Shown here: positions 14,881-41,300 of the stretch, in pieces
Position numbering within the stretch: position 1 is the first letter of the stretch
Layout: each line of letters opens with the position of its first letter
From: Pirellulales bacterium
Lineage (GTDB): Bacteria > Planctomycetota > Planctomycetia > Pirellulales > JAEUIK01
Direction: 5' to 3'
DNA length: 64,000 nucleotides
NCBI GenBank assembly: GCA_965227275.1
Contig: CBDDFU010000001.1
Coordinates: 3,378,764-3,442,763 of the forward strand
The notes under the pieces: generated by a model
What the model was told of the DNA's origin: nothing
The model's database searches: none
Seen by the model: the letters and a program-made list of their open reading frames with translations, nothing else
Made by a program: the position numbers and the translations under genes

Positions 14881-17800
14881 CTAGCCCTTGGTAATCGTTT
14901 CGTCCAGGTTCAGGATCAGGTTGGCGACCATGGTCCAGGCGGCCAGCTCCTTCACATTGAGCGTGCCGTCGCGGGTAGCCTCACCCATTTCAACCAGGCG
15001 ACCAGCGGCCAGCGGTTTCTTTTCGTACTCGGCCAGGTGATCGCGGTAGGCCGCTTCCATCACCGCAACCTCCGCTTCATCGGGCAGCCTGGATGTGGCC
15101 AGGCGGAAGCCGTAACGAATACGAGAGGCCGTGTCTTCCCCGCCTTCGTTCATCATGCGTTCGGCCAGACAACGGGCGGCCTCAACAAACTGAACGTCGT
15201 TCATCAACAGTAAGGCTTGCAGGGGAGTGTTCGTTCGAGCACGTCGAACCGTGCACGATTCGCGATCGGGGGCATCCAGCGTCTGCATTGCCGGCGGGGG
15301 TGCCGTGCGTTTGAGGAACGTATACATACTGCGACGATAGAGGGCGTCGCCATTGTCTCGCTTGAAGTTGGCCGTATTGCTCGAGGTGTAACCCACGGCC
15401 TTCCAAATGCCCGCGGGTTGATAGGGCTTCACACTGGGGCCGCCAATGTCGGTGACCAGCAAGCCCGAAGCTGCCAAGGCGTTGTCGCGAATCATCTCGG
15501 CGTCCATGCGATAGCGAGGACCACGAGACAAGAGCCGGTTCTGCGGGTCCTTCTCCAGCAACTCCGGAGTGACTTTGGAAGATTGGCGGTAGGTGGCCGA
15601 GGTGACGATCATGCGCTGGAAGGCCTTGATATCCCAACCGGTCTCGATGAACGTGGTGGCCAGCCAGTCCAACAGCAACGGGTGCGATGGCCACTCGCCC
15701 TGTGCTCCGAAGTCTTCTGGAGTGCGCACGATTCCGTACCCGAAGTAACGCTGCCAAAAGCGGTTCACTGTTACTCGGGAAGTTAGCGGATGTCCGGGGT
15801 CCACCAACCACATGGCCAGCCCCAAGCGGTTGGCAGGTGCACCTTCAGGCATCGGCGGAAGGCTTTTCGGAACATCCGGGGCGACTTCAATGTCGCTTGG
15901 TTGGTCGTATTGGCCGCGAATCAAAACATAAGCTGGGCGACGCTCCGGCATGTCCTGCATGATCATCGACGTAGGAGCCAGGGCGAGGATGTCTTCGCGC
16001 TGTTTGCGAACCTGCGTTGCTTGCTCGTTGGCGGCTTGCCAGTCGGAAGCGAACGTGCTGCGATAGAAATCGGATATCGTCTCGATTTGTTCGTTCGACC
16101 GGGTCTCTCGGGGGGAGGAAAGGATCATCGCAATATTCAGTGGCAGTTCCCCAGACCGCTCTTCCAGCGTCTGGCAGACAAATGAGTAGGCTCCCGCGTA
16201 GTTCACCACTTTCACCAGCAAATCGTTCTTGCCGGGTTGCAGATCGAGCACCACGCGGTCTTGGTTGGGGGCAGCGCCACGCTGCACGTCGCGATCGAGC
16301 ACCAAATTCGAATTGAGCCACACCTTCAAGCCGTCGTCACTACCCATGCCGAGCGTGACTTGTCGTGCCTCCAGTGTCTCGATCGTGCGATGGAAATACG
16401 TGGCCGCGTTCTCACTTTCCAGCGAAACGACCTCGCCCTCCTTCACATCTCCGCGCGAGTTCCACTTCAACTGATCGTCGTTGTAGGTTTGATCGAGATG
16501 CACGCTTTCTTCGGGCGGAAACGCCTGGGCGTAGGCTTCACTGCCACTGGCGGCCGAGAAGGGCCCAATGCTGCTCCACGTTCCAAATCGCGTGGGCGCC
16601 AGCACGGCGTTGTCGGAAACCGAGAGGCGAAAGCGGCCAATGTTGTGTTGCGAAAACTGCGACTCGTGCCGCATGCGGATACGAAGCTGCGCGCCGCTGG
16701 GCATGTTCAGCGGTTCGGCCAGATAGAACACGGCCGTTCCGTTGGCGTGCCGCTCGTGGCCCGCCACGGCCCAACCATTGCTCGGGCCGACCTGCCCATC
16801 GATGGCCTGGGCGACTTCATACGTGGGTTGCGAGTAATCGGCCACTGCCGAAGCGAACTTCAACGGCACGACCGTTTCCAGGTTGTCCAACGGTGAAGCC
16901 TCGACTTCGATTTCGCTCAGCACGAAGTTCGCGTTTGGCGAACGCCCCGGGCCGGAATTCGGGAGGCCTTCATGGGTGAATGCCTCGAGCCGCAAGGCGA
17001 CGATCCCCTGGGCGTCGGTTTGAGTAACGAATTCGTAGGTGTCCTGGCTGGCATTGGTGCCCTCGACCAACAGGGTCGCATCGTCCAACCGACGAAGGGT
17101 GGCGCCGCCGGTTGACGTCGTCTCGGTCGGATTCAGAACGTCCCAAGTGGACAACAGTTTCTGCGACCAGTCCGATTCCCAAACCTGCTGGGCCGCATCG
17201 ACCTCGGGACGTAGCTCGGCAAGCTGGGCTTCGATTCCTGCGATCTGCGTGTCCAATTCAGCAAGTTGTGCCGCCTGTTCGGTCGAAGGGACTCGAATGG
17301 TCGGCGGAGGGTCGGGCTTGTTTCCGTCCATCGCCCTTTCGGTCAGGCTATTGAAAAACGCGAACATGCTGTAGAAGTCGCGCATCGTCAACGGGTCGAA
17401 CTTGTGGTCGTGGCAAACGGCACATCCGGCGGCCAATCCCAACCATACGGTCGACGTGGTTTCTACACGGTCGACTGCATAGCGAACCAGATACTCGGCA
17501 TCGATCGAGCCGCCTTCGCTCGTGCTAACGTTGCAGCGATTGAACCCGGTGGCTACCAATTGATCTAACGACGGTTCAGGCAACAGGTCGCCGGCCAACT
17601 GCTCAATGGTGAAGGTGTCAAATCGCTTGTTCTCGTTGAACGCATTGATGACCCAATCGCGATACGGCCACATGACCCGCATGTTGTCCAAGTGCAAACC
17701 ATGCGTATCGCCATAGCGGGCCGCATCGAGCCAGTAGCGGGCCATCTGTTCGCCGTAGTGAGGCGAACCGAGCAGTCGATCGACCAGGGTCTCGTATGCC

Positions 17801-18438
17801 TTGTCGCTGGTGTCTGCCAGGAAGGTTTCAATTTCTTGAATCGTAGGTGGCAACCCGGTCAGGTCGAATGTCACTCGGCGAATCAACTCGACTTTGCCGG
17901 CCTCTTCCGAGGGACTCAAACCCGCTTCTTGTAGCTGAGCGTACACAAAGTGATCGATGGGGTTCTTGGCCCATCCTTCACCTACAGTCGGAACTCGCGG
18001 CCGTTGTGGCGAGATGAACGACCAATGCCCCTCCCAAGCCGCACCCTGTTCGATCCATTGTCTTAGTAACGCCTTTTCCTCTGCAGTGAGTTGCCGCTCG
18101 CTGTCGACGGGGGGCATCTGCATGTATTCGTCTTCGGCATCAATCCGCGCGATCAGCTCGCTTGTCTCGGGTGACCCCGGGACGATAGCCCGCGAACCCG
18201 ATTCAAGTTCAGCCAGCGCATCTTCTTCCACGTCGAAGCGTAGGCCCGCTTCGCGCTTCTCTCCATCGGGACCGTGGCAGGCGTAGCACTTATCGGAAAG
18301 GATCGGGCGGATGTCGCGATTGAAGTTGATCGCCTGATCGGGGGCTGCATCTTCCGCGTAGACCGCTGCTGCGCAGGAAGTGAGTATCAGGAAAAGAGCA
18401 ACACCGAGGTTGCGTACGACTGAAGTCCCGCTCATCAA
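14881..18438 (-). CDS. PSCyt / DUF1549 / DUF1553 protein with large central insertion
   Basis: 1185-aa ORF. Signal peptide, [31 protein letters not shown], and DUF1553-type C-terminus (...[14 protein letters not shown]). About 450 extra aa lie between the DUF1549 and DUF1553 parts, including a beta-sandwich-like module. Confidence 0.85.
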
Positions 18439-20851: not shown

Positions 20852-23800
20852 CTACGGTGCCATTTTAGCCGTGAAGTCTTGCTGCTGCTTGGATTCGGGA
20901 GCGAATTCTGTACCGGAGTCAGCACCTTCGACATGCTCGGGCGAAGTGACCCGTAGCAGCCAGTCGATGCGTTCAGCATCGATCGTCCCTTTGTTCAGCT
21001 CTTGGGACACTGCCGATACGACTCGCGTGCGGATTTGCTCCGCATTCAGCGGTTCGACTTCGTTTAAGTACTGGTGTTCGCGGAAGTACTCTTCCAGCCC
21101 CTCGATCGCGGTTGCCGGCATCCGCTTCACCTGCTTGTTCCGCAGGGCTTCGACAAGTGCCTTGGCGTCGCCTTGCAGTCGTTTGGAGAGGTTGGCCACT
21201 TCTTCGATCCAACGAGGCTTCAGCCCGCTCTCTTGCAACACTGCTCGATCGGCGGGGCGCCCGCGCCCGATTTGCCAGGCCGTGCACAACGCCTCCAACA
21301 CACGTTGCGAAGCGGTGGCTTTGGCAAAGATCTGGTCGTCCATCCCTTCGAGCAGGAAACCTCCCCGCGCGGCGAGCGCTTCGAGTTGCCCCCAATTGTT
21401 GATCCCCAGTTTGAGCAATGCGTAGAGCGCTTGAGTGTCATCGATGAAATACCAAAGGTGCGTTCCGCCCAGGGGGCGGAATGGATCGAAGCCGGGAACC
21501 CCCAGCAGTCCGCGGTACGCCCACAAGTCGTGGTCTGCGGGCGATGGAATCGAAATCGGCTCGGGCATTCGCGGAAGTTCAACCGGTGGGATACGCTCTT
21601 GTTCTGAAAATCCGCGACGCTCGGCAAGATCGACCAACTCGAGAGGTACATCCGGATACTTGTCCTGTAGCACGGCTCGCCATTTCGCTACTTCATCCCA
21701 CTGGGCGGTGAGGTAGAAGAGTTGCCGTCCGTCGCGACAAAGCTCGACGGCCGCGTCGATAATCTCACCGGCTCTACGTTCGTCGCTGTTGCCCAGCGTC
21801 TCGTCAAAGATCAAGGGCAACCTCGGGCCTAGCTCTTGCTGTTCGATAAACGCCACGCGAACCGCCAGTAGCAGCTGCAGCCTAGTCCCGCTGGAGAGTT
21901 CGTCCAGGGGTTGCCCTCGTCCCGTGGCAGTATCGATGGCCCGAAGTCGGGGAGGATCGCCCTGGTCGACATCCAACTGGTATCGCCCGTGGGTGATGCG
22001 AACGAATGCGTCTTGTGCCTTGCGGAAAACTGGCGGACGATCGCGTTCGCGTTGCTGTTCCTTGAGATAGCTGGCCAGCAAGTTGCCGACCATCGCGGCC
22101 TTGTCTTCCTCGCGTCGCGCTCGGAGCTGCGATTTTTGCTCGTCCAGCTCCGCGAGGGCCGTTTCCAGGTCGTGCTGCTTCTTCGCCAATTCGACTTGTT
22201 TTTCGATGGCCCCGATCTGTTGATCGATTTCCGTGGCACCCTCGGCAATCTGCTCGGCTGCGCCACGCTCTGCGAGCAGCGCTTCGCGACTCTTCTCTTT
22301 CCAGTCGTCAAGGTCAGCCAATGCCTCGGCGGCCGCATCATGATGGCCACGAGCAAAGTCGAGGTTTTGTTTGCACTTCAGATAATCGCTGCGGGTCTCC
22401 ACCCACTGGCGAAGTTGCGGCTCATCGTCGGGGGTGAGGCCAACTTTTTTGAAGACCTCCTCTTCGGCTTGTTGTTGATTGCCCAACTTGTCGTCGATGG
22501 CCGCGATTTGTTCGGTACAGTTTTCCACAACGGGTGTCGCGGTGGCGACCTGCTGCTGGCGAGCGGCCAACGTTTCGATGGTCGGCCCCAGTTTTTCAGA
22601 GGACAAACCTTCATCGCACCCTACTGCAGCCAAACCGTTACGGAGTTCCTGCAGCAACGATGCCATGGCGGACTGGCTCTCCTGAAGCTCGTGTTCGGCT
22701 GCCAGTCGCGTGCGGTGCGCTCGTTGCCATTCGCACAGGTTGCTGGCCCAAACCGCAAGAAACGTGGGGTCATCTTCGGCAATAGGCGGGCGAACGGTTC
22801 GTGACGACAGGGCGTTCCATTGCTCCTCGAGCTCGCGGCCTTCCCGAGTGAGTTGCCGCTGCTCGTCTTCAAGTTCTCGACGGCGTGTTGCTCGTTGCTG
22901 ATTGATGGTCGCCGCATTGAACGTGTGTTGCAGTTCGTGGCGATGTTTGCGAACCGACTCCGGGGTCCAGGTATTGGGCTGTGGAACCCCGATCGCGCTC
23001 ACCTGGCGTTCGAGCCGTTCGCGTTCATCGATCGATATCTGTTCCAGGTACCTGGCCAGTAACCGTTGGGCCAGCGGAAGCACGACGGCCAGGGTGGCAC
23101 CGATGATCCAGTGTTGATGCCACAACAATACACCTACCAACCCCAACGCCAAAGCCGCCAGAACCCAGGTCGTGAACCTGCCGGCTCGCAGCACACTGGG
23201 CGAGGGTTCAATCAGCGTCAACCATTGATCGAGCAGCGAGCATGCTTCGCGCAAGTCCTCGGGCGAGGCGTCTGCTTCATCGACGGTCAGCAGGCGGATC
23301 GCCTCGGCGTTCTTCTGGCGATTCACCTGCCATGTGGTCCAGCGGCGAGCGTAACCTGACATTTCGGCCACCACCCCGGCGTCGATCGCTTGCAGTTCTT
23401 CGCTGATGCCCGGTTCGCCAAAGAATCGAGCCGCTTCATCCTCCACGGTTCGTTGTTCGGTCGCCTTCAAGCTGGCGGCTTCTTCGCGAGCCTGCAGTTC
23501 ATCCAGTCGGCGAAGTGTGTTTCGCCAACCGCCAATCTGCTCGACCGAAAGCGACTCGGGCGCGAGATCCGCGGCTTCAATTGCCCGGCGAGCCTCGGAT
23601 AAACGGACTTGCAACTGTTGCTTTTCCTCTTCCAGCGAAGCACGACGCTGCCGCAACTCGTTCAGGCGTTCGATCTCTTGCCCGCCGATGCTTTGGAGCT
23701 GTTTTGGGAACGCATCGACGGCCAGGGTTGCCTCGCGAAGCTTCTCGCTCGCCTCCAGATAATCTTCGGCTTTGCTGATCACGGCCAGTCGTTGCTGGGC

Positions 23801-24409
23801 GTTCATCGCATCTTGTTTCTGGCGGCGTAACTCCCCGAGCTGCGCGGCCTGGGATTCCAATTCCCGCTGTCGTTGGCGAATCTCGTGAACTTGCTGCCGG
23901 GCTTCGTTGACCGCATCTTTGAATCGTTTCGATTTGCGTGCCCGTGGGCTGGGGGCGAACTCCAGCTTTTCTGCCGCCGCGGCAATGTCGTAGCCGCCAG
24001 CCGACTCTCGCAGGATTTGTTCCGCAAAGCCGTGAGCACCTTCTTGCTCATCCTGCAACAAATCGTGCAGGGCAAGCACGTAACGATCAGCGCTGTCCAA
24101 CGAGGTCGTCAGTGGGGGATCGACATCGCGTCCCTCCTGTTGGCAACTCACCCGACCATGATCAATCTCAATCGCCAGCAAGGCTCCCTGGACGTTTACC
24201 GTGCCGGCAATCGAGATATGACGGAGAGCGTCGGGGTCGCGCCACAAAAGGTGCCGCAGCGCGAGGCCGAAGGTGGTTTTCCCGGCCGCATTGGGCCCGT
24301 ATATGATGTTCACCCCCGGTGACAGTCGCGGCACGTCAAACCCGTCGTCGTGAAAGCCTAGCAGGCGTCGAATCTTGGCCGACGTGAAGTGCAACTGAGG
24401 CTCGTTCAT
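20852..24409 (-). CDS. SMC/SbcC-like (YhaN-type) ATPase with internal membrane hairpin and C-terminal extension
   Basis: 1185-aa ORF. Walker A YGPNAAGKTT and long Q/E/R/L-rich coiled-coil segments. Two adjacent hydrophobic helices (FTTWVLAALALGLVGVLLW / IIGATLAVVLPLA). Signature-like LSSGTRLQLLLA and Walker B LPLIFDETLGNSD. About 265 further aa have no motif I recognise. Confidence 0.75.
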   Translation of the reverse strand: MNEPQLHFTSAKIRRLLGFHDDGFDVPRLSPGVNIIYGPNAAGKTTFGLALRHLLWRDPDALRHISIAGTVNVQGALLAIEIDHGRVSCQQEGRDVDPPLTTSLDSADRYVLALHDLLQDEQEGAHGFAEQILRESAGGYDIAAAAEKLEFAPSPRARKSKRFKDAVNEARQQVHEIRQRQRELESQAAQLGELRRQKQDAMNAQQRLAVISKAEDYLEASEKLREATLAVDAFPKQLQSIGGQEIERLNELRQRRASLEEEKQQLQVRLSEARRAIEAADLAPESLSVEQIGGWRNTLRRLDELQAREEAASLKATEQRTVEDEAARFFGEPGISEELQAIDAGVVAEMSGYARRWTTWQVNRQKNAEAIRLLTVDEADASPEDLREACSLLDQWLTLIEPSPSVLRAGRFTTWVLAALALGLVGVLLWHQHWIIGATLAVVLPLAQRLLARYLEQISIDERERLERQVSAIGVPQPNTWTPESVRKHRHELQHTFNAATINQQRATRRRELEDEQRQLTREGRELEEQWNALSSRTVRPPIAEDDPTFLAVWASNLCEWQRAHRTRLAAEHELQESQSAMASLLQELRNGLAAVGCDEGLSSEKLGPTIETLAARQQQVATATPVVENCTEQIAAIDDKLGNQQQAEEEVFKKVGLTPDDEPQLRQWVETRSDYLKCKQNLDFARGHHDAAAEALADLDDWKEKSREALLAERGAAEQIAEGATEIDQQIGAIEKQVELAKKQHDLETALAELDEQKSQLRARREEDKAAMVGNLLASYLKEQQRERDRPPVFRKAQDAFVRITHGRYQLDVDQGDPPRLRAIDTATGRGQPLDELSSGTRLQLLLAVRVAFIEQQELGPRLPLIFDETLGNSDERRAGEIIDAAVELCRDGRQLFYLTAQWDEVAKWRAVLQDKYPDVPLELVDLAERRGFSEQERIPPVELPRMPEPISIPSPADHDLWAYRGLLGVPGFDPFRPLGGTHLWYFIDDTQALYALLKLGINNWGQLEALAARGGFLLEGMDDQIFAKATASQRVLEALCTAWQIGRGRPADRAVLQESGLKPRWIEEVANLSKRLQGDAKALVEALRNKQVKRMPATAIEGLEEYFREHQYLNEVEPLNAEQIRTRVVSAVSQELNKGTIDAERIDWLLRVTSPEHVEGADSGTEFAPESKQQQDFTAKMAP

Positions 24410-25689
24410 GGCTGCTCCCTCTGTGCGATGAGGGAATCCAACAAAGCCATCCCCTGTTGAAAGAGTAGTTGCCGAGCTTCTTCCTTGGACGGGGTCTCGT
24501 CGGCGACCGCCACGTACACGTGCGATTGCTGCGCCTCGTCGATCGCCTCCAGGGCCTGTTGCATCAAGGTTTGAGCGGGACCGGCGTCCGAGTCAGACTC
24601 CAACTCCAACAACAACTTGGCCAGGGTGCCCGGGGGATCACTTCCACGAGCCAGGTCCTCGAGATCGATGGCCAGGCGTGTATCGATCATGTTCTTCTCT
24701 ACGGTGCCGATTGCGTTGCCCACCGGCAGTGAAAAATCGGCGTCGATCTCGTTGACGAACTCCTGCAAACGGCCGTGGCAATCGGTGCGTCCCGTGAGAC
24801 GGACCCGCCAGATGACGAATTCGAGCGAAGGGGCGTTCTCGGTCAACTCGCTCAGCCGGTTCTTCAGGCTTTGAATGTATTGCCGTTGGAATTCGGACTT
24901 CTCTTTGACGTCGGTCAGATCGATGTCAACAACGTCATAACAAACTCGCGACAGCGGCAGTTGCGAGAAGCTCGGTTTGGTGCCGGCTTCGATCTCAATG
25001 AGCCAAGGGCCATGCACTCCCGTCTCTCCGGGATCCATGGCCTGGGGCGACCCGGGATAGAGGATCGCCGCACCCTTCGCGTTATCGACCAGCTGGGGCG
25101 CGTGCACATGACCCAAGAGCCAGGCCGCCACCGGGTGGGATTGCAGTTTTTGTGAAGCCAAGGGGGCATACACACTCTGCGGCACATCGAGATCGCCGTG
25201 CACCAGTGCGAAGGTTGGCACTTCGCTGGAACGTATGCTCGGCAGGTCGTCCACCGGGTCGGTCTGCACGTGTTCCTGCGGAAACGACCAGCCCAGGAAA
25301 TTCACGACCGGACGTCCTTCGATTCGCAGCTCGGCTGTTTCCCAAGTTCCATTGCGACCCAGCAGGTGGAACTTCTCGGCGTCCAGCGTATCGGCCAGCC
25401 TGGGAAGCACGTCGAAGTCGTGATTCCCCGAAACGGCAAACGTCTCGATCCCTGCCTGAGCCAGCTCGTTCAAACCCCGTTCGAGCGGCCCGATGGCTTC
25501 GAAGAAACGGTTTTCGCGATCGACCACGTCGCCGGTCAGCACCACGGCATCGACAGGGCGTCTCAAGGCAGTCTCGACGATCGAATCCCACATCGCGGCA
25601 CAGGAACAATTTCCTGCCGCTTCGCTGGAGCTCAGTCGAGTTGGTCGGCGGCCTATGTGTAGATCGCCGGTACACAATAGCGTGGTCAT
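24406..25689 (-). CDS. Metallophosphoesterase, SbcD/Mre11 (YhaO-like) nuclease family
   Basis: 427-aa ORF. Calcineurin-like phosphoesterase motifs GDLHIG, LTGDVVD, SGNHD, LVHG, LGHVH. The stop overlaps the downstream ATPase start (ATGA). Confidence 0.8.
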   Translation of the reverse strand: MTTLLCTGDLHIGRRPTRLSSSEAAGNCSCAAMWDSIVETALRRPVDAVVLTGDVVDRENRFFEAIGPLERGLNELAQAGIETFAVSGNHDFDVLPRLADTLDAEKFHLLGRNGTWETAELRIEGRPVVNFLGWSFPQEHVQTDPVDDLPSIRSSEVPTFALVHGDLDVPQSVYAPLASQKLQSHPVAAWLLGHVHAPQLVDNAKGAAILYPGSPQAMDPGETGVHGPWLIEIEAGTKPSFSQLPLSRVCYDVVDIDLTDVKEKSEFQRQYIQSLKNRLSELTENAPSLEFVIWRVRLTGRTDCHGRLQEFVNEIDADFSLPVGNAIGTVEKNMIDTRLAIDLEDLARGSDPPGTLAKLLLELESDSDAGPAQTLMQQALEAIDEAQQSHVYVAVADETPSKEEARQLLFQQGMALLDSLIAQREQP

Positions 25690-25974: not shown

Positions 25975-26619
25975 GTGGCGACTTCCGTAGATCTCAACGC
26001 GAATCAGTGGCAGGTCGTCGAACGGTGGCAGGAATACGGTGCGGAGGCGCGTGCCAACCTATTGAGAGTGGTTGGGGTCGGAACGTTCTACATCATCGAA
26101 CTTCTCAACCACTACGGGCTCAGCCTCGGGGTCCTGGAGTTACCGCCGGTCGAAGGTGTTGATCGACCCTTTCATCTTGCGGTTACTTCATTAGCAGCAA
26201 TCTGGGCTGCGTTAGCCGTTGCCATCCATCTCTGTTTGCGTCAGAGGATTTTTCCCTGGTACTTGAAGTTCGTTTCGACGGGATGCGACCTGATATTGCT
26301 GACGTCGATTCTGATGGTCGCCGATGGCCCCAGTAGCCCTTTAATTGTTGGCTACCTGTTGGTAATCACTCTGGCGGCACTGCGATTGAGCTTACCGCTG
26401 ATCTGGTTTTCAACCCTGGGGGCGATGACGGGCTACTTGGTGCTGTGTGGCTATGCACGCTGGTTCACCGATCGTGCCATTGACGTTCCCCGGTATTACC
26501 AATTCATTTTCTTGTTGGCACTTGCCTTATCCGGCGTGGCCTTGGGGCAATTGATTCGTCGCTTGCCTCAAATTGCCGCGGATTATGCGACACGAATTGA
26601 GGGGCACTCTGACGATTAG
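25975..26619 (+). CDS. Hypothetical polytopic membrane protein
   Basis: 214-aa ORF with GTG start and about five predicted TM helices. No catalytic motif recognised. Confidence 0.5.
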   Translation: MATSVDLNANQWQVVERWQEYGAEARANLLRVVGVGTFYIIELLNHYGLSLGVLELPPVEGVDRPFHLAVTSLAAIWAALAVAIHLCLRQRIFPWYLKFVSTGCDLILLTSILMVADGPSSPLIVGYLLVITLAALRLSLPLIWFSTLGAMTGYLVLCGYARWFTDRAIDVPRYYQFIFLLALALSGVALGQLIRRLPQIAADYATRIEGHSDD

Positions 26620-26679
26620 GAGTGTGTGAAATGAATCCCGCTGGAAATCCTTAGCAAGGGGCGCAAGCAGCCGACTGAG

Positions 26680-27171
26680 ATGAACGATTCGCCGACCGAA
26701 ATTGCTGCCGGAAGATATCGCTGCCCAACCTGCGGCGCGATGAACCAGACTTCGGCGCACCCGTCCAACGTGCTGAAGTGCTGGCTCTGCACACATTCCT
26801 TCACCCGCGACGGCACCAAAGTCGCCGACAACGCGGTTGCTGAACCGAGGAACCCTCTTGAAAAGCAGGGCGTGACGTTCGGGCTCACGACGTTGATGTT
26901 GATCGTCACGATGGCCGCCATCGGGTTCGGGATCTTTCGTAGTGCACCCGGCTTGGGGATTCTGTTCTTCGTCCTTCTTACTCCGGCACTCGTACGAGCC
27001 CAGATCATCACCATGCGGCAACGAGAGCTGGGGGTGGCCCAGTCGGTGATCGAAGTATTTGCGACATTTGTCGTCTCACTCGGGGTGACCATGTTTGTGT
27101 TGGGTCTCGTGCTAATTGCTGGTGTGATCGCGTTCGTCGGGACGTGCTTCTATGCGTTTTCTCAATTCTGA
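26680..27171 (+). CDS. Hypothetical zinc-ribbon membrane protein
   Basis: 163-aa ORF. N-terminal CPTCG...(17 aa)...CWLC zinc-ribbon pattern followed by three hydrophobic helices. Confidence 0.5.
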   Translation: MNDSPTEIAAGRYRCPTCGAMNQTSAHPSNVLKCWLCTHSFTRDGTKVADNAVAEPRNPLEKQGVTFGLTTLMLIVTMAAIGFGIFRSAPGLGILFFVLLTPALVRAQIITMRQRELGVAQSVIEVFATFVVSLGVTMFVLGLVLIAGVIAFVGTCFYAFSQF

Positions 27172-27200
27172 ATCGTCCAAAACTCCGAAGGATCCCCGGC

Positions 27201-28718
27201 ATGACGCTGCGTGACTATACGTTTATTGGCACCACGGAAAGTCTCTGTCCCGAGTGCTTGTCGCTTGTTCCCGCGAAAGTCATCACCCGGGGAAAGCGTG
27301 TTTACTTTCGCAAGCGCTGTCCGACGCACGGCGTTCGGGAAGATTTCGTCTGCTCCGACGTAGCCCATTACAACCGCCACGAGTTCAGCGTGCCGGGTCG
27401 CAAGTCGGAAGTGTATGGAACCGAGCCGAAGAAAGGTTGCCCCTTCGATTGCGGGTTGTGCACCGAACACGAGCAGCATACCTGTGTGGGGCTTGTCGAG
27501 CTGACGAGTTCGTGCAACCTGAGTTGCCCGATGTGCTACGCCTCCAGCGGGCCCGGGGGGGAACATCTCAGCTTCGAGCAGTGCACGGCGGCCATCGATC
27601 GTTTGGTGGAGGCCGAGGGTCGTGCGGAAGTCTTGCAGCTATCCGGAGGCGAACCAACCTTGCACCCGCAGTTTGCGGAGGTGTTCGAGTACGCATGTCG
27701 TCAGCCCATCGACATCGTGATGATCAATACCAACGGCATTCGGCTAGCCAATGATTCGGCCCTGCTCGATTTGCTGGCCGCGCAGCGACATCGCATCGAG
27801 ATCTACTTCCAGTTCGATGGCTTTCGTGAAACGACCAGCCGACAATTGCGTGGCGAATCGCTCGTCGACACGAAACTTCGGGCCATCGAAAAACTGGGAG
27901 AGCGTCGACTAAGAACCACCCTGGTCACAACGTTGCAGGGCGATCTCAACCTGGACGAGGTGGGTGCGATTACGCAATTTGCCCTCGAACGACCCTGGAT
28001 CACCGGGGTGAGTTTCCAGCCGGCAACCTATTCGGGACGTTGGGTTACGCCCGAAAGCCTGGAACAACGGGTCACTTTTCCCGACGTGATCGAGGCCCTC
28101 GTTCAGCAATGCGGCGGCTTGTTCGAGCCGGCCGATTTTATGCCAGTGCCGTGTGCGCATCCCAACTGCCATACGTTGAGTTACGTGTATCGCGGTACGG
28201 AACAACCCACGCCAGTCTCGCGATTCATCAACGCTGCCGAGCACCTCGACCTGCTGGCCAACGGAATCACGTTCAATCGAACCCGTGCCCGGGAGTTGGT
28301 TGAAACGTACTTGGGTCGTCAGGGATGCTGTGCTGGGGGAAGTTGCCTTCCAGAGCAGTCCCAATCCGCCGATACGGTGCTGCCGGTGATCACGACGGCG
28401 AACCCCGCCAGCGGAACGCTGGATCGTCAGTCGGAGGAGTTCTTCAGCCGTGCGTTGGCCGAACAACTCGATCCCGAGGACGTGTTTCGAGTCACGATTA
28501 CTTCATTTCTCGACGCCTACAACTTCGATGTCCAGCGTGTGATGAAATGCTGCATTCATCATGTATTGCCCAGCGGTCATATCATTCCGTTTTGTGCCTA
28601 CAACGTGTTGTATCGCGAAGGTCACGTCCCGTTACCCCCGTTGCAACAAGAATTGGGCCAGGCGAATGGTCGGCCGTTGGGGGACCGTAAGCCACTACTG
28701 ACCGCGGGCAACGAGTGA
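27201..28718 (+). CDS. Radical SAM enzyme with multiple Cys clusters, Tes / GDGT-MAS (MJ0619)-like architecture
   Basis: 505 aa from ATG 27201. N-terminal CPEC...CPTH rubredoxin-like site, GCPFDCGLCTEHEQHTC, canonical CNLSCPMC (CX3CX2C), SGGEPTL. C-terminal Cys/His cluster CAHPNCH ... CCIHHVLPSGHIIPFCAYN. Confidence 0.85.
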   Translation: MTLRDYTFIGTTESLCPECLSLVPAKVITRGKRVYFRKRCPTHGVREDFVCSDVAHYNRHEFSVPGRKSEVYGTEPKKGCPFDCGLCTEHEQHTCVGLVELTSSCNLSCPMCYASSGPGGEHLSFEQCTAAIDRLVEAEGRAEVLQLSGGEPTLHPQFAEVFEYACRQPIDIVMINTNGIRLANDSALLDLLAAQRHRIEIYFQFDGFRETTSRQLRGESLVDTKLRAIEKLGERRLRTTLVTTLQGDLNLDEVGAITQFALERPWITGVSFQPATYSGRWVTPESLEQRVTFPDVIEALVQQCGGLFEPADFMPVPCAHPNCHTLSYVYRGTEQPTPVSRFINAAEHLDLLANGITFNRTRARELVETYLGRQGCCAGGSCLPEQSQSADTVLPVITTANPASGTLDRQSEEFFSRALAEQLDPEDVFRVTITSFLDAYNFDVQRVMKCCIHHVLPSGHIIPFCAYNVLYREGHVPLPPLQQELGQANGRPLGDRKPLLTAGNE

Positions 28719-29440
28719 TGATCGAAGTGAATTGGCAATATGCGGGCGTGATGTTGCTGGCGATGATCGTCGGCATCACCATCAGCCGCTGGACGCAACA
28801 GCCGCTGGGGCTCTCCGTAACCGAGCGAATCGGCATCGCCCTGGGGGCCTTTTGCGGAGCCATGATCGGAGCCAAGCTGCCGTTTGCCTTGGCGAACTGG
28901 CAGGACTTTCTTGAAGGTGGGCTGTGGTACGCTTCCGGGAAGACCATCGTATTGGGGTTAGTCGGCGGGTACCTGGGTGTGGAAGTTACCAAGTGGTCGC
29001 TCGATATCCACGTGAAGACTGGCGATAGTTTCGTAGTCCCTGTGGCCGCGGCCATTGCCGTTGGGCGTCTTGGCTGTTTCGTGGGCGGTTGTTGCTATGG
29101 CACGCCGACCTCGCTGCCCTGGGGAATTGCCTTCGCCGACGGGATCGCCCGCCACCCCACGCAACTTTACGAGGCAATGTTTCATGCCACCGCTGCCATG
29201 GTTCTGTACGTGATGTGGCGGAGAAAGATGTTCCCGGGTCAGCTCATCAAGCTCTATATCCTGGCGTATCTGGTCTATCGCTTTGCCACCGAATGGATTC
29301 GCCCCGAGCCGCACATGTGGTTCGGCCTTACCGGCTATCAGTGGGCAGCCGCTGTTTGCATTCCCGTCTTCGTGTGGTTGTGGATCCGCGACGCCAAAGC
29401 CATGGCACCAGCACATTGGGAAGTCACGAGCAGCATGTGA
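28715..29440 (+). CDS. Lgt (prolipoprotein diacylglyceryl transferase) family protein, non-canonical subfamily
   Basis: 241-aa polytopic ORF. GRLGCFVGGCCYGTPTSLPWGIAF and RHPTQLYEA align with the Lgt signature region. The start (GTG 28715 / ATG 28718) overlaps the radical SAM stop codon (28716-28718). Confidence 0.8.
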   Translation: MMIEVNWQYAGVMLLAMIVGITISRWTQQPLGLSVTERIGIALGAFCGAMIGAKLPFALANWQDFLEGGLWYASGKTIVLGLVGGYLGVEVTKWSLDIHVKTGDSFVVPVAAAIAVGRLGCFVGGCCYGTPTSLPWGIAFADGIARHPTQLYEAMFHATAAMVLYVMWRRKMFPGQLIKLYILAYLVYRFATEWIRPEPHMWFGLTGYQWAAAVCIPVFVWLWIRDAKAMAPAHWEVTSSM

Positions 29441-30009: not shown

Positions 30010-31155
30010 TCAAGCTGGAGGACGAGAGCTTGGAACGATGATGGGTTTCTGACCGGCCAGAGTGATTCGCTGCCGAAGGGCACGGTCGACCATTAGAAAC
30101 TCGCCGAGATTTTCGGTGGTAAGCATACCCACGATCTGACCATCTTTTACCACCGGCAGTGTTCGACCCGGGGCGGATTGAAGTCGCGGAATGACCGGCT
30201 CCAACATCTCGGACGCATCCGCGGTCTTGATATCGGTCCGCATCACCGTGGCGACTCGGGCGTATTGTCCCTGCTCGGCCAGGGCCTTCACTATGTCGGC
30301 CCGCGTGAGAACGCCCACGAATTTTCCCTCATCGATGACCGGGAAATCGTGTTGAAACCCTGCCAACACAAAATTGACGGCGCGACTTAGTTCGTCATCC
30401 GGCGCGAGTACTTGGAAGTCGGTCACCATCACGCGGCTCACGGGTATCCCGGAGACTGCCGAACGGATCCGAACCGAGGAAGCTTCCTGGGCGGCCCCCA
30501 TCCAAACGAACAACGCAATGAAGACGAGGAAGGGATTAAACCAGATCAGCCCCATCAACCCGAACAGCACGGCCATGGCTTGCCCGACATTCGCGGCGAT
30601 GTTTGTTGCTCGTACGTAGTCCAGTTTCGATGCCAGTACGGCTCGCAACACGCGACCGCCGTCCATGGGGAATGCCGGCAGCATATTGAACAGCACCAGC
30701 ATCACATTGATCGAGATGAGCTGAAACAGGAACATCGCCACCGAGCTGTCGAGAATATTCCATTGCATGGAATACGACAGGACCGCCAATCCGATTAGTG
30801 CAATCGAGAGTAGAACGGCCAACACCACGTTTACGGCAGGGCCTGCCACGGCGATAAGGAATTCCTGCCACGGTTGCCTTGGCATGCGTTCCAAGCGGGC
30901 CACGCCGCCAAACAACAGGAGCGTGATGTCCTGGGTGCGTATGCCGAATCGCCTCGCGGTGAGCGCATGGCCCAACTCGTGCAAGACAATGATCCCAAAC
31001 AGGACCAAAATCAATGCCACGAGTTGCAGCACGCCACCGACGCTCTTCTGGTCGGCAAAGCCAAGCATCACGACCAGGGCGATGAGTACAAGGAACGAGA
31101 CATTGACATAGATGCCAATGCCCGAGATCGTGCCGATCTTCCAAGACCATCGCAT
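30010..31155 (-). CDS. Site-2 protease family (peptidase M50) with tandem CBS domains
   Basis: 381-aa ORF. HELGHALTARRFG (HExxH), NMLPAFPMDGGRVL (NxxPxxxxDG), multiple TM helices, and a C-terminal CBS pair (VMVTDFQVL..., VMRTDIKTA...). Confidence 0.85.
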   Translation of the reverse strand: MRWSWKIGTISGIGIYVNVSFLVLIALVVMLGFADQKSVGGVLQLVALILVLFGIIVLHELGHALTARRFGIRTQDITLLLFGGVARLERMPRQPWQEFLIAVAGPAVNVVLAVLLSIALIGLAVLSYSMQWNILDSSVAMFLFQLISINVMLVLFNMLPAFPMDGGRVLRAVLASKLDYVRATNIAANVGQAMAVLFGLMGLIWFNPFLVFIALFVWMGAAQEASSVRIRSAVSGIPVSRVMVTDFQVLAPDDELSRAVNFVLAGFQHDFPVIDEGKFVGVLTRADIVKALAEQGQYARVATVMRTDIKTADASEMLEPVIPRLQSAPGRTLPVVKDGQIVGMLTTENLGEFLMVDRALRQRITLAGQKPIIVPSSRPPA

Positions 31156-32911: not shown

Positions 32912-34729
32912 TCAACGAATGCGGCGGAACTTTTTGAAGTTGGGGTAGAACGGGACGCGGATCCCAAGCCCCGGCAACTCGAAGTTCCAAGGCGTCTCCC
33001 AAGTATGCGGCCAGTACACGAACAAGGCCTTGCCGATCAGCAACGACTCGTGCACAAGATGATCGTCGGGAAGTCGTGCCTCGGCATTGAAACTTCCCCA
33101 CAGGCGGCTATCCATACTGCCAGGGCTGTTGTCGCCCAGGGCGACGTAATGATCGGGCAGCACCTCCAACTCAATCTCTCTCATATCATCGAAGATCGCC
33201 CAATAGCGAGGGTCGGACATGATCTTGCTAATGCCTTCCTCGCTAAGACTCTTGTAGATCGGCGAGTTGTCCGGATAGTCGGCCAGTACCGGTTCGGGGC
33301 GCTGAACGTAAACTTCGAGGGCCTCCCGCGTGGCAATGTAGTACACGTCACGTAGCACCCGTAGTTCGCTTACGCTTACTTTGGCGTCAGAAGAGCCGAT
33401 TCGTACCGGAGCGAGATCCGCCGGCATCGGGCGAAGGTTATCCAACGGTCCATAGGTTGTGGGAGTATCGAACTCAATGGGTGTACCGTCGACCCAGAGA
33501 TAAAGACAATCGTTCACGTTCGCAAACCGCACTTCGTAGGTGCCCGGTCCGTCGATCGGAACCGTTGCCTTGGGGGCGAAGTCGGCCAGTTGATCGATGG
33601 AAAGCGTTGCCGTTTTGCTGCCAATATCGATCTTGCACTGGAACATTCGCCCGCCTTCGATCAGCACGTAGCTGATTTGGCCCTGGTCACTTTCAACTTT
33701 CAGCCTGCTTTCGACTGCCAAATCGCCAACCCAATGCAATCCCAGGCACTGTGCCTCGGGACCTACGAGCGGACCGGGGGGATGGCTGACACCCGTGTTG
33801 TACGCATAGAAATCGGTCACAAGCTGGGGAGGGGGGATGTCGCCCGGTTGCAATGTCCCTTGCTCGATCTTCCGCCACGTGTCGAACGACGGGAGGATGT
33901 GACGGTACGAAATCCACGACGTTTCTGACGTGGGCGTACGAATCTGAAACGTACGACCTCGATCTTCGCTGGTCCACGCGTTTCCATCTTGCATCACCTC
34001 ACCATCGGCATTGGTCGCTTGCCATCGCGAGGGCCAACCCGCGTCGAGCAATGCATCGGTGGTGTAGTCGTTGTCGTACACATTCTGCAGCGTTGCGACC
34101 ACCTTGTGGGGTTCTTTGCGTGCGATTTCGAACGTTTCGCTATCGGGCGACTTCACATAGACGTTGCCATGATGAATCTTCAGCGTCTCACCGGGCATAC
34201 CAACGAGTCGCTTGATGTAGTTGGTTTGCGCACCGTGCGGGTACTTGAATACCGCCACGTCCCACCGCTTGGGAGGATCGATTCCGTACAAGTACTTCGC
34301 AACCTGCAGACGATCTCCCGAGTAGTCGAGGTACTTCCGCCCCTGTGGGTTGTTCTCTCGAATGTCGGCCCGATAACGACACATGGGGCAGGTGGTCGAT
34401 TCGGCCTCGTATTCATACCGCCGTTGACCGGTGGTCTGGTCGACCCCCTTGCTCACACCAACCTGATACAGAAAGCCACACTCCGGACAGTTCAGATCCT
34501 TATGCAGACCCACCAGCGTGGGGCCCATCGACCCGGTGGGAATGACATACCCTTCGGCCTGAAACGTTCGGAACAGGAACGCCAGGATGAAGGCGATCAC
34601 GATCGACTCGATGGTCTCTCGCATCGCCCGATCGCTGTGAGGGGGCTTCGACGACGTTTCCGTCTTGGTCTCGGGCTTCGCTGAAGCCGCGGCTCGTGTT
34701 TGGCGGCTGGGTGTATTTTTTCGGGCCAT
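32912..34729 (-). CDS. lepB: Signal peptidase I (S26), unusually large
   Basis: 605-aa ORF. TM anchor, then IPTGSMGPTLVG (Ser box), VAVFKYP, YIKRLVGMPGETL (Lys box) and GDNSPGSMDSRLWG. A CPEC...CPMC insertion and about 350 aa lie between the Lys box and the last box. Confidence 0.8.
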   Translation of the reverse strand: MARKNTPSRQTRAAASAKPETKTETSSKPPHSDRAMRETIESIVIAFILAFLFRTFQAEGYVIPTGSMGPTLVGLHKDLNCPECGFLYQVGVSKGVDQTTGQRRYEYEAESTTCPMCRYRADIRENNPQGRKYLDYSGDRLQVAKYLYGIDPPKRWDVAVFKYPHGAQTNYIKRLVGMPGETLKIHHGNVYVKSPDSETFEIARKEPHKVVATLQNVYDNDYTTDALLDAGWPSRWQATNADGEVMQDGNAWTSEDRGRTFQIRTPTSETSWISYRHILPSFDTWRKIEQGTLQPGDIPPPQLVTDFYAYNTGVSHPPGPLVGPEAQCLGLHWVGDLAVESRLKVESDQGQISYVLIEGGRMFQCKIDIGSKTATLSIDQLADFAPKATVPIDGPGTYEVRFANVNDCLYLWVDGTPIEFDTPTTYGPLDNLRPMPADLAPVRIGSSDAKVSVSELRVLRDVYYIATREALEVYVQRPEPVLADYPDNSPIYKSLSEEGISKIMSDPRYWAIFDDMREIELEVLPDHYVALGDNSPGSMDSRLWGSFNAEARLPDDHLVHESLLIGKALFVYWPHTWETPWNFELPGLGIRVPFYPNFKKFRRIR

Positions 34730-38351: not shown

Positions 38352-41300
38352 ATGACAGTCCCCGTCTACATGTTGAGCTATCTACGCCGCCTGTCTCAAT
38401 TGTCCCTGGTTGCCATCACTATGTTTGGCACATTCGCGATGCCGGGGCTCACGAACCTCTTCGTGGCTTCCTGTGGAACTGTTCACGCAGCGGAGGTGGA
38501 CGATGACGAAGAAGACGAAGACGGTTTACCTCCGGCGGGGTTGATTGCCACTTACAAGTCGTCGGGAACCGCGGAGGCAAACTTCTCCCGGCTCGAACCA
38601 ACCCCCGCCGTATTGCTCACCGAGAGCCAGTCGCCCGATCCTCGTTTGCAGCCCGGCAAGTGGGCGGTGCGGTGGAGTGGTCAGCTCCAGGTCCTGCAAC
38701 CCGGTACCTATCGTTTCTCCGCGATCCTCGACGGAACGCTAACGGTGCGGCTGGACGACAAGGTGGTGCTGGAGGGGAGCAGCGAAGACATCGAGGAGGT
38801 CTCCGGGAGCGAGATCGAACTCCCGTTCGGATTGCACCCCATCCAGATCGAGTATCAGCCTTCACCAACCCAGGCCCGACTGCGCCTGATGTGGGAGAGC
38901 GATCAGTTCGCCGAGGAACCGGTCCCCGCCACGGCCTTTTCCCACCAACCAACACTAAGGCCGGAGTCTGATGAGGGCGGTTGGCTATCGTCCTTCGCCC
39001 ACGGTCAGTTGATGGTAGAGGAACACGCTTGCATCGCCTGTCACTCGGCTAGCGACGAAGTGCCCCTGTCGCAATCGCTTTCTCGCCGTGAAGGGCCGCG
39101 ACTCCATCAAGGTTCGCAACGGCTGAAGGCCGCGTGGATCTACGCGTGGCTAGCCGATCCCCAGGTATTCCGTACCGAGGCCGTCATGCCACGGCTGTTT
39201 CCATCCGACGCCAACGGAGATGCGGAGCGGTATGCGTTGGCGGTTTACCTGAGTCAGTCGACACCAAGCGGCAGCGATGCTCAGTACGCCATGACCAGCG
39301 AGAAGGTTGCCGCGGGGCAAAAGCTCTTCGAACGCATTGGTTGCACCGTCTGCCATGACAAACAAGGAGATCTCGCGGCCAGGGCGACGCTGGCCAAATT
39401 GGGACAGAAGACCACCCCCGAGCAGCTTGCCCGTTTCTTGCAAGATCCGCTGGCCGTCGACCCCTCGGGCCGCATGCCCCACATGTTTCTGTCGGAGGAT
39501 GAGTCCGACAGTCTCGCCCAGTATCTCATCGACCGAGATGCCAGTGAAAGCGGTTCGCTGGAACTGCCCGCGGCGCCGAGTGTGGAGAGTGTCCGTGCGG
39601 CCTACATGGCGATGGGCAAGACGGATGCAGAAGCCAAATCGTTCGACGCGATGCCCACAAACGAACAACTTGAGTCGCTGGCCGTGGCGTCATTGCAAAT
39701 CCGTCGCTGTATCAATTGTCACGAGGTGCGTGACCCAAGCGGCGAGGTTCAAGGCAATCCACGAATGGCCGACCACAACCTGTCGGACGTGGCTCAGGCG
39801 GCAAGCCAGCCTGTGCAGCCGAAGGGATGTTTGTCCGAAACGGTCGAATTGGATCGTGGAGTCCCACGGTTCGCTGCGGACGTTCGCGACAACAAGTTGC
39901 TGCGAGATTTCTTATCCGAACTCGCTGTCGCCGTGGGCTCAAGCGCACCGGGACACGACGCGTCGCTCACGATGGCGCGTTTTCAGTGCATGCGATGTCA
40001 CGACTACAATGCTCAGGGAGGTTTGAGCCCCGAATTTGCAGCCAAGATGCTGGCCGAGCAGACCGAGGCGGCCGCCGAGCTGATTCATCCCCCCACGCTC
40101 ACCGGGGTCGTTCACAAGTTGTTGGCCAAGCAACTACGCGGCACGCTTGTTGAAGGCTCACGCGCACGTCCCTGGATGGATCTGAGGATGCCGGGTTTCC
40201 CCAAGCCGGCCATGGAAGCGATGCCCTCACGCCTGGCAGCCCTGGAAGGCGACCAGCTGATCGAAACAAACCCAACGATCGAAGCAAACGACGAACTGAT
40301 CGAAGCCGGCCAAACGTTGATCGGTTCGCAAGGATTCGGGTGTACGAAGTGCCACGACCTCGCGGGCAGAACCGGCAGCGGAACACGAGGCCCCGACTTG
40401 GCGAACGTTCCGAGTCGCGTTGGCTACGATTGGTATCTCCACTGGATGACCGACCCCCAACGCATGCAACCGGGCACCCGCATGCCGACGGTTTTCTTTC
40501 AAGGCCAGAGCCCCTATCCCGATGTGTTGGGTGGCGATCCCCAACGTCAGCGCGATGCGATGTGGCAGTACCTGTTGGTGGCCGCCGAACGACCCTTGGC
40601 AGATTCGATGCCCGAGGATGCGGTTGCCGACGCTTTGTCGGCAGACACGATGCCGCAGGTGATGCGGACGTTCTTGCCCGATGTTTCTCCCCGCTCGATG
40701 GCGATTCGCTATCCGCAGAAAATCAATCTGGCCTACGACGCTCAGTCGTGCCGTCTGGCGTATGCCTGGCAGGGAGAATTCCTCGACCTGCAACCTGTAT
40801 GGACTGAACGCGGAGGCCGGCCCGCCCGCATTGAAGGTGAAATCTTTTGGCGGGCCCCGGCAGGATTTCCCTGGGATGTAACCTCCGCGGTCGACGAACT
40901 GCCGAAATTCACCAACCGCGGGGACGACACGGCATTTGGGGCGGTGCTGCCCGACGACAAGAAGCTTCACCCCACGCGGCTCGATTTTCTGGGCTACCGT
41001 CTTTCGCCCCAGGGACCTCAATTCGAGTATGTGTTGTACGACCGAGTTCCCAACGCCCTGGGTACCGGCGTAGTGGATGGACGCAAGCAACTGGCGCACT
41101 TCGCAGAGAACGCTCAGCCATTTATCACGCAGACGTTACGAGGTGTGGTGCGCCGCGTGGCGATGGACGCCGACAGCGGTTCAATCATCTGGCTTCATGC
41201 GGCCGACAGCGAAACGCTGCCCACAGTCTATCGCAAGGGCAATGATCCGCAGGCGATGCAGGCTGATGAACCGCTGGACGCCGCTTCCGTGGTTTGCGAG

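Follow-up and report, generated by a model that had tools for sequence, protein, structure and literature searches.

A GDGT-MAS/Tes-superfamily radical SAM protein paired with an Lgt paralogue in a membrane module of a Pirellulales bacterium

The four-gene membrane module

A stretch of 64,000 nucleotides from a Pirellulales bacterium (GenBank assembly GCA_965227275.1, contig CBDDFU010000001.1, positions 3,378,764 to 3,442,763), referred to here as the window, was analysed around a radical S-adenosylmethionine (SAM) gene at 27201-28718. This gene is the third of a four-gene membrane module at 25975-29440, with all genes on the plus strand. It encodes a protein of 505 amino acids (aa) in the superfamily of the archaeal tetraether lipid synthase (GDGT-MAS/Tes) and falls in a clade confined to planctomycetes, distinct from both Tes and TrsS. 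The fourth gene (28718-29440) encodes an integral membrane protein of 240 aa which is a paralogue of the prolipoprotein diacylglyceryl transferase Lgt. The radical SAM stop codon and the ATG of this paralogue at 28718 overlap as TGATG, and an alternative GTG start is present at 28715. The first gene (25975-26619) encodes a multi-pass membrane protein of 214 aa with no Pfam or NCBIfam match. The second (26680-27171) encodes a zinc-ribbon-like protein of 163 aa with an N-terminal CxxC...CxxC and C-terminal transmembrane segments. A first-pass annotation, made by a model from the sequence alone, had placed the radical SAM gene among membrane-protein genes, which was borne out for its neighbours. 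It had overlooked the decisive context, namely that an Lgt paralogue is translationally coupled to the gene.

The longest frame of the radical SAM open reading frame (ORF) runs from a GTG at 27144 to 28718. The ATG at 27201 gives the protein of 505 aa and an N-terminus that fits the family consensus MxLRDHTFLG of 115 homologues, while the GTG start would run into the preceding gene. Two Pfam domains were matched: the HMPTM/MJ0619-type zinc ribbon Zn_ribbon_HMPTM (PF23545, 67 bits, residues 8-52) and Radical_SAM (PF04055, 74 bits, residues 100-260). Conservation was assessed in an alignment of the 115 homologues, which are approximately 65% identical. The Cys and His residues listed below were invariant or at least 90% conserved, and because the homologues share only this level of identity the pattern is under selection rather than a product of chance.

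A predicted rubredoxin-like mononuclear Fe site, C16-x2-C19-x20-C40-x2-H43 (27246-27329), is invariant in all 115 homologues. It is followed by a predicted N-terminal auxiliary [4Fe-4S] motif, C80-x3-C84-x2-C87-x2-H90, and then by H93 and C95 (27438-27485), the surrounding sequence being G79-CPFDCGLCTEHEQHTC95. The radical SAM cluster motif C105-x3-C109-x2-C112 (C105-NLSCPMC112, 27513-27536) aligns with CNLNCPIC of the GDGT-MAS structure 7TOL. The C-terminal part contains C318-AHPN-C323-H324 (28152-28172), Thr434 (28500-28502) and C450-C451-I-H453-H454 with C465 (28548-28595), the last residue sitting in the motif P463-FCAYN468. A further motif, C376-C377-x4-C382 (28326-28346), is at least 90% conserved in the planctomycete clade and absent or gapped elsewhere. 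It lies in a low-confidence loop of the AlphaFold2 (AF2) model, in which the predicted local distance difference test (pLDDT) score is below 50 at residues 380-393.

The first-pass annotation had reported the ORF, its length and the motifs CPEC...CPTH, an upstream cluster, CNLSCPMC, CAHPNCH, CCIHH and PFCAYN. All of these were found, and the motifs are conserved in the 115 homologues. The spacer between CPEC and CPTH had been given as 18 aa and is 20, exactly the CX2CX20CX2H of GDGT-MAS. CNLSCPMC had been placed at 27512-27535, one base too early. The Cys residues described as a single C-terminal group form two separate sets, and the clade-conserved C376-C377-x4-C382 was absent from the list.

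The Lgt paralogue matched Pfam LGT (PF01790, 98 bits) at profile positions 9-239 of 240. It scored far below every NCBIfam Lgt equivalog cutoff (NF000778, 93.8 against 334 bits; TIGR00544, 48.2 against 118.9 bits). The AF2 model had a pLDDT of 89 and its sole significant Protein Data Bank (PDB) match by Foldseek was E. coli Lgt 5AZB, with a template modelling (TM) score of 0.59, so the partner protein is modelled with the seven-helix Lgt fold. A modified Lgt signature motif was located at 29063-29101 and reads G-R-L-G-C-F-V-G-G-C-C-Y-G (GRLGCFVGGCCYG). In the alignment to 5AZB the corresponding E. coli segment is G142-RLGNFINGELW-G154. R143 is kept while N146, E151 and L152 are each replaced by Cys, and the canonical signature GRxGNFxNxELxG with Asn146 and Glu151 is therefore not present in the paralogue. 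We take both Asn146 and Glu151 to be essential in E. coli Lgt. The Cys triad was invariant in 68 of 69 radical-SAM-linked Lgt paralogues. The equivalents of Arg143, His196-Pro-x-Gln-Leu-Tyr-Glu, Tyr235, Arg239, Glu243 and Arg246 are also kept, and the two Arg residues Arg143 and Arg239 presumably bind the phosphate of phosphatidylglycerol in the E. coli enzyme. Canonical Lgt forms a thioether to Cys. From homology to E. coli Lgt and the positive-inside rule, the active-site motif is predicted to lie at the periplasmic end of transmembrane helix 4. The paralogue is approximately 50 residues shorter than E. coli Lgt, a shortfall which we take to include the periplasmic head segment.

In Planctopirus limnophila the canonical lgt gene, Plim_2253, is essential and is located between a sigma-factor gene and panC, not beside a radical SAM gene (PMC10632474). 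With a separate essential canonical lgt elsewhere in that genome, the Lgt paralogue represents an additional function. Plim_0097, annotated as a radical SAM domain protein, was also essential in transposon sequencing of P. limnophila (PMC10632474, supplementary file 3) and may or may not be the orthologue of the window gene.

Relation to GDGT-MAS, Tes and TrsS

A phmmer search of the PDB returned GDGT-MAS (MJ0619, 7TOL) as by far the best match of the radical SAM protein (E 6e-70). The aligned stretches were residues 12-322 and 429-473, the latter aligning with residues 454-498 of 7TOL. The AF2 model had a predicted TM score of 0.83 and a mean pLDDT of 78.9, and the low-confidence regions included the cluster-binding loops, as expected in a model built without cofactors. 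Foldseek aligned the model with 7TOM and 7TOL over approximately 497 columns (TM 0.72-0.73, E 1e-34), and this was the sole full-length structural match. The remaining PDB matches covered the radical SAM core only, with query-normalised TM scores of at most 0.38. The next match after GDGT-MAS, the peptide maturase SkfB, reached a TM score of only 0.35. The protein is thus modelled with the four-domain fold of GDGT-MAS. It is a member of the GDGT-MAS/Tes/TrsS superfamily, with an HMPTM zinc ribbon, a radical SAM core and a C-terminal Cys-rich domain (IPR034474).

The protein scored 290.9 bits on the Tes model NF045702, for which the cutoff is 450, and the best stretch covered model positions 2-320 of 486. 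The best-scoring NCBIfam model was TrsS (NF045646), with 342.9 bits against a cutoff of 490 over residues 11-474. A survey of 1.84 billion cluster representatives yielded 643 superfamily matches at E ≤1e-30; taxon names exist for only a few of the superfamily representatives. The query's own clade collapsed to one representative (654 bits) and the next full-length protein scored 377 bits. Twenty clade representatives were scored on the NCBIfam models. P0217 and P0234 were true Tes of the MJ0619 clade (556 and 593 bits on the Tes model), P0226 and P0183 were true TrsS (671 and 607 bits on the TrsS model), and the other 16 were under both cutoffs.

A superfamily alignment combined MJ0619 segments with 107 full-length proteins, made up of the query, five of its close homologues and 101 representatives. 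A neighbour-joining tree of the 50%-identity cluster representatives, built from Kimura distances with 100 bootstraps and thus by a distance method only, supported the planctomycete clade at 100% and the Tes clade at 96%. A Tes plus TrsS clade without the query was supported at 88%. The sister group of the planctomycete clade had a support of only 22%, and the rooting of the tree is likewise unsettled.

In 1000 archaeal homologues two residues of GDGT-MAS, Tyr459 and Met439, which acts as a labile ligand to [4Fe-4S]C, were reported to be completely conserved (Lloyd et al.). In the superfamily alignment Met was found at the 439 position in the Tes plus TrsS clade only, with His, Lys or Thr in other clades. 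In the query Thr434 occupies this position and His454 stands in place of Tyr459, both being conserved within the planctomycete clade. The GDGT-MAS variants M439A and Y459F/L stay active and neither residue is essential in vitro. For this reason their loss weakens the statement that the protein is a Tes more than the statement that it works like one.

These results divide the first-pass assignment to the Tes/GDGT-MAS family. Membership of the structural superfamily was upheld by phmmer, by fold and by the positions of the metal sites, and at sequence level every Cys/His ligand position is kept for the rubredoxin-like site and three [4Fe-4S] clusters that had been proposed. Orthology was contradicted by the model cutoffs, by the position of the query outside both the Tes and the Tes plus TrsS clades, and by the replacement of Met439 and Tyr459. 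The radical SAM protein is, from these sequence comparisons, not a Tes/GDGT-MAS orthologue.

At approximately 30-38% identity the protein shares with GDGT-MAS the spacing of the rubredoxin-like site (C16X2C19X20C40X2H43 compared to C9X2C12X20C33X2H36), the N-terminal cluster (C80X3C84X2C87 and H90, matching C73/C77/C80 and His), the CX3CX2C radical SAM cluster and the three Cys positions of the C-terminal cluster. It differs in having an extra Cys triad, C95/C318/C451, with H93, and the extra CCx4C loop. Its Lgt-paralogue partner, which looks obligate, and the two upstream membrane proteins have no counterpart with archaeal Tes, and its host is a bacterium with ester-linked lipids based on glycerol-3-phosphate.

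TrsS, a radical SAM (seleno)protein, was characterised here by model scores and one genomic context. The query resembles it in superfamily, cluster motifs and a nearly full-length model match, but the true TrsS proteins P0226 and P0183 retain Met as the ligand and fall together with Tes. The true TrsS locus (L087) encodes a UbiE-like methyltransferase, a C_GCAxxG_C_C protein, an AMP-binding enzyme, XdhC and a molybdenum hydroxylase, and no Lgt. Neighbours of this type (methyltransferase, C_GCAxxG_C_C, AMP-binding, XdhC) were absent from the window neighbourhood and none was conserved in 80 related loci.

Two other groups of enzymes offer comparisons. Mss of Thermotoga and Thermoanaerobacter is a radical SAM enzyme for which tail-to-tail coupling of bacterial acyl chains, assisted by an auxiliary cluster, has been proposed; no other bacterial enzyme of this type has experimental confirmation. 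It belongs to another radical SAM family, described as only remotely related to Tes, and is found in anaerobes only. The consulted passages of the Mss papers name no Lgt partner. In LipA, BioB and MiaB/RimO an auxiliary Fe-S cluster forms a C-S bond with the substrate radical, as GDGT-MAS does transiently, but specific homology to the query beyond the radical SAM core was not detectable and the likeness is a mechanistic analogy only.

The C-terminal Cys residues fall into two sets. Set 1 (C323, C450 and C465) corresponds to the [4Fe-4S]C ligand positions and was present in every one of the Tes, TrsS-like and planctomycete representatives. Set 2 consists of C95, C318 and C451, usually with H93. 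The complete set 2 triad was found in 57 of 67 representatives of other clades, in all six planctomycete representatives and in 9 of 25 that were TrsS-like, but in none of the five Tes. The C318 position was Cys in one of the five Tes representatives compared to 89% of the other clades. Because set 2 co-varies in an all-or-none manner, an additional Cys3(His)-type metal site (H93/C95/C318/C451) without counterpart in GDGT-MAS is predicted, which would make the protein a five-centre enzyme. The closest 50%-identity representative, P0121 (locus L083, 56% identity), has C323 replaced by Ala and C450 and C465 by Ser, and keeps C95, C318 and C451. An Lgt paralogue bearing the Cys triad is encoded downstream of it.

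Conservation and fusion of the radical SAM/Lgt pair

Synteny was examined in 80 loci from GTDB species genomes of Pirellulales, Planctomycetales, Gemmatales and Isosphaerales, including the cultured aerobes Blastopirellula marina, Bremerella, Tundrisphaera and Anatilimnocola. Seventy-four of these were informative, having enough downstream DNA. The Lgt paralogue was found downstream on the same strand in 67 of the 74, and within 400 nt in 59. With the window included (81 loci), the 163-aa protein was directly upstream of the radical SAM gene in 49, with a median gap of -65 nt and weak conservation, and the 214-aa protein was upstream on the same strand in 31. Clustering of the neighbourhood ORFs was contaminated by overlapping alternative-frame ORFs, a consequence of the GC-rich DNA, and only families anchored on window genes were trusted.

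The partnership extends beyond the planctomycete clade. A Thermincola-type clade (L086, 39% identity) has the order radical SAM, LGT, ArsP_1 and Sulf_transp/ICMT, and a Wallbacteria locus (L088) contains radical SAM, ICMT/PEMT, DUF4395, LGT and hydrolase genes in this order. An Lgt neighbour is also present in the P0133 clade (L085), whose relatives include Fibrobacterota proteins, and in the nearest sister P0121. The two genes also occur as natural fusions with the order LGT, Zn-ribbon, radical SAM. P0135 is such a fusion of 733 aa, with three cluster members on three contigs, and P0164 is one of 671 aa. The LGT half of P0164 shares 50% identity with the window paralogue and contains GRLGCLHAGCCFG. 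The Cys triad is present in this fusion and in L086 and L088. The P0164 locus (L092) keeps both upstream membrane proteins, the counterpart of the 214-aa protein at 55% identity in the same position and that of the 163-aa protein at 29% (E 7e-15). The radical SAM/Lgt pair is thus translationally coupled, co-conserved in four planctomycete orders and in other phyla, and fused in at least two lineages, and the Lgt partnership is older than the planctomycete clade. A proposed co-variation between the CC pair of the Lgt paralogue and the [4Fe-4S]C Cys residues of its radical SAM partner was rejected, as P0121 and P0147 lack that Cys set while their partners keep the triad.

In both fusions the radical SAM domain is at the Lgt C-terminus. 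Homology to E. coli Lgt and the positive-inside rule applied to the predicted helices place this end in the cytoplasm. The arrangement would suit a SAM-dependent enzyme of the cytoplasm that docks on a partner in the membrane. Gene fusions of this kind are a strong prior for joint action of the radical SAM protein and the Lgt paralogue.

Other clades of the superfamily have varied contexts. P0124 and P0166 have methyltransferase neighbours. Further fusions (P0246, P0221, P0207, P0243, P0200 and P0267) involve MobA-like NTP transferase with or without HD, class I methyltransferase, AMP-binding and DUF5714 domains. These fusions and the molybdenum context of TrsS at L087 hint at cofactor-related rather than lipid roles for those clades. 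At L090:3580-9209 two tandem Tes-superfamily radical SAM genes lie in a cluster with ICMT/PEMT, cysteine desulfurase/rhodanese, short-chain dehydrogenase/reductase, ketoacyl synthase (KS), ketoreductase (KR), acyl carrier protein (ACP) and FabA-like genes, which looks like a dedicated pathway for an unusual lipid. At L092:4686-6065 a 459-aa rhodanese-domain protein with a membrane region overlaps the 3' end of the LGT/radical SAM fusion gene. Together with the Sulf_transp gene of L086 and the cysteine desulfurase of L090, this suggests a theme of sulfur supply around related systems.

Several other genes of the window were considered as module parts and rejected, as they were not conserved beside the pair: the SbcCD-like pair, a histidine kinase, an M50 protease, an S26 peptidase and a class V aminotransferase. 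Beyond the four module genes, conservation did not extend to any window neighbour. The SbcC/SbcD-type nuclease pair (20852-25689, minus strand) consists of a 1185-aa AAA/SMC-like ATPase and, after an overlapping stop/start, a 427-aa calcineurin-like phosphoesterase. An M50 site-2-protease-like gene with CBS domains (30010-31155) lies near a signal peptidase I (S26) homologue (32912-34729, minus strand) of 605 aa, which has three matched stretches and is far longer than a typical LepB. A PSCyt1/PSCyt2/PSD1 (DUF1549/DUF1553) planctomycete cytochrome protein is encoded at 14881-18438 on the minus strand and a 1062-aa multi-cytochrome-c/PA14 protein at 38352-41540 on the plus strand. Both are typical planctomycete signature genes and support the planctomycete assignment.

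Proposed function and significance

The radical SAM protein and the Lgt paralogue are proposed to form a membrane-lipid or lipid-anchor tailoring complex using Tes-type radical chemistry, a reading drawn from sequence and models to which we assign a probability of about one half and which leaves the exact chemistry open. The catalytic core of the module would be the cytoplasmic Tes-fold radical SAM enzyme and the integral membrane Lgt paralogue. The paralogue would bind a glycerophospholipid or diacylglyceryl unit in the membrane, and the enzyme would dock on its cytoplasmic C-terminal face and cleave SAM. An unactivated carbon of an acyl chain would lose a hydrogen to the resulting 5'-deoxyadenosyl radical. 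As in GDGT-MAS, a sulfide of the C-terminal auxiliary [4Fe-4S] cluster may then catch the substrate radical, and the captured intermediate would be resolved by formation of a C-C or C-S bond. The product would most likely be a low-abundance tailored lipid or lipid anchor and not a bulk tetraether of the glycerol dialkyl glycerol tetraether (GDGT) or branched GDGT (brGDGT) type.

The GDGT-MAS pocket accepts bacterial diacyl phospholipids, and phosphatidic acid of E. coli is bound by the enzyme. An S-C intermediate arises on its [4Fe-4S]C, and thiolated lipid is released when SAM is short (Lloyd et al.). Other non-Tes clades pair with membrane ICMT/PEMT methyltransferases or with the KS/KR/ACP/FabA cluster, which is consistent with lipid substrates. 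For the planctomycete clade itself, the Lgt partner suggests a glycerolipid substrate. More tentatively, and in our view somewhat unlikely, the four genes may constitute a new membrane machine that builds a cross-linked lipid or lipid anchor through C-C or C-S thioether bonds, such as a macrocyclic or membrane-spanning diacylglyceryl unit or C28-C35 hydroxy fatty acids. Such a machine, a five-metal-centre radical SAM enzyme with a Cys-triad Lgt, might be common throughout Planctomycetia, with scattered occurrences in Bacillota (Thermincola), Wallbacteria and further lineages, a picture we offer with similar reserve.

Some points weigh against the tailoring complex. The Lgt active-site motif in transmembrane helix 4 is predicted to be periplasmic while the radical SAM enzyme is cytoplasmic, and how the two would share access to one substrate is unexplained. 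The P0121 and P0133/P0147 clades have lost the three [4Fe-4S]C Cys residues and keep the Lgt partner, so the partnership does not strictly need this cluster. The proposed fifth metal site is deduced from co-variation only. Several superfamily clades have non-lipid contexts, and with these clades tied to methyltransferase, MobA-like, AMP-binding and molybdoenzyme genes, membership of the superfamily alone does not imply coupling of lipid tails.

In line with the first-pass suggestion of membrane-spanning lipid synthesis, the protein could instead be a bacterial equivalent of a tetraether synthase. It would join two diacyl glycerolipids (or one) through C-C bonds between their tail ends to give membrane-spanning or macrocyclic lipids, with the paralogue perhaps holding an outer-leaflet lipid. 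This role has been proposed in the literature for bacterial homologues, and it would fit the full-length GDGT-MAS fold, the three invariant [4Fe-4S]C Cys positions and the binding of E. coli phosphatidic acid by GDGT-MAS. Nor do Thr434 and His454 exclude Csp3-Csp3 coupling, given the activity of the M439A and Y459F/L variants. It is nevertheless judged unlikely. The protein is under the Tes cutoff and outside the Tes and Tes plus TrsS clades, archaeal Tes needs no Lgt-like partner, and sister clades partnered with Lgt lack the set 1 Cys residues of the coupling cluster. Bacterial homologues are without experimental confirmation in the literature, and Tes homologues were absent from most producers of iso-diabolic and diabolic acid. 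The lipid data point both ways. The acid hydrolysate of Lacipirellula parvula (Pirellulales), prepared by the iso-diabolic-acid protocol, had no dicarboxylic acids listed at 0.4% or above, in one isolate which may or may not carry the gene pair. The same lipid table gives approximately 17% C28-C35 (omega-1)-hydroxy and dihydroxy fatty acids, which are of bilayer-spanning length and unexplained in planctomycetes. They are a candidate product class, with nothing linking them to the module.

A reading by analogy with LipA, BioB and MiaB would make the S-C intermediate the end point, so that the enzyme would insert sulfur and yield a thiolated tail or, with the paralogue, a thioether between lipid and Cys. 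The release of thiolated lipid by GDGT-MAS when short of SAM agrees with this, as do the three invariant Cys in the active-site motif of a paralogue of a thioether-forming enzyme and the sulfur genes beside related systems (rhodanese at L092, cysteine desulfurase/rhodanese at L090 and Sulf_transp/YeeE-like at L086). Analogy is its sole footing, however. No sulfur-transfer gene was conserved beside the pair in the 80 planctomycete loci and the Cys triad is predicted to be periplasmic, far from the cytoplasmic enzyme, which leaves this reading quite improbable. It is very unlikely that the radical SAM enzyme modifies a protein, peptide or cofactor while the Lgt paralogue serves only as a membrane anchor or scaffold. 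The non-lipid associations of other clades, with methyltransferases, MobA-like NTP transferases, AMP-binding enzymes and molybdoenzyme loci, would allow it, the nearest solved structure after GDGT-MAS is the peptide maturase SkfB, and the two small co-conserved membrane proteins could be substrates. The SkfB match is however confined to the core domain of radical SAM enzymes (TM 0.35), conservation of the small zinc-ribbon protein is poor, and the substrate-binding and catalytic-type residues of the paralogue are invariant, which a mere anchor would not need.

Bacterial Tes homologues, including those of planctomycetes, are known from bioinformatic surveys and have been hypothesised to make brGDGT-like lipids, none of this being confirmed experimentally. 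The bare finding of a planctomycete Tes homologue is therefore not new. A literature search returned no paper combining Tes terms with "diacylglyceryl transferase". So far as the searched literature shows, four points are new: the clade's lack of orthology to Tes, its Lgt partner with the Cys triad, the gene fusions and the additional set of Cys residues. Metagenomic studies commonly take bacterial Tes homologues as a sign that branched GDGT or membrane-spanning lipids can be made, a practice with consequences for palaeoclimate lipid proxies and for the debate on the lipid divide. The large clade in Planctomycetia is no orthologue of Tes and has a Cys-triad Lgt paralogue as its partner, and it therefore cannot safely be tallied among the tetraether synthases. 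The predicted fifth metal site is of specific interest for radical SAM enzymology. The radical SAM/Lgt pair is a concrete two-gene target in genetically tractable planctomycetes such as, if it carries the pair, Planctopirus limnophila.

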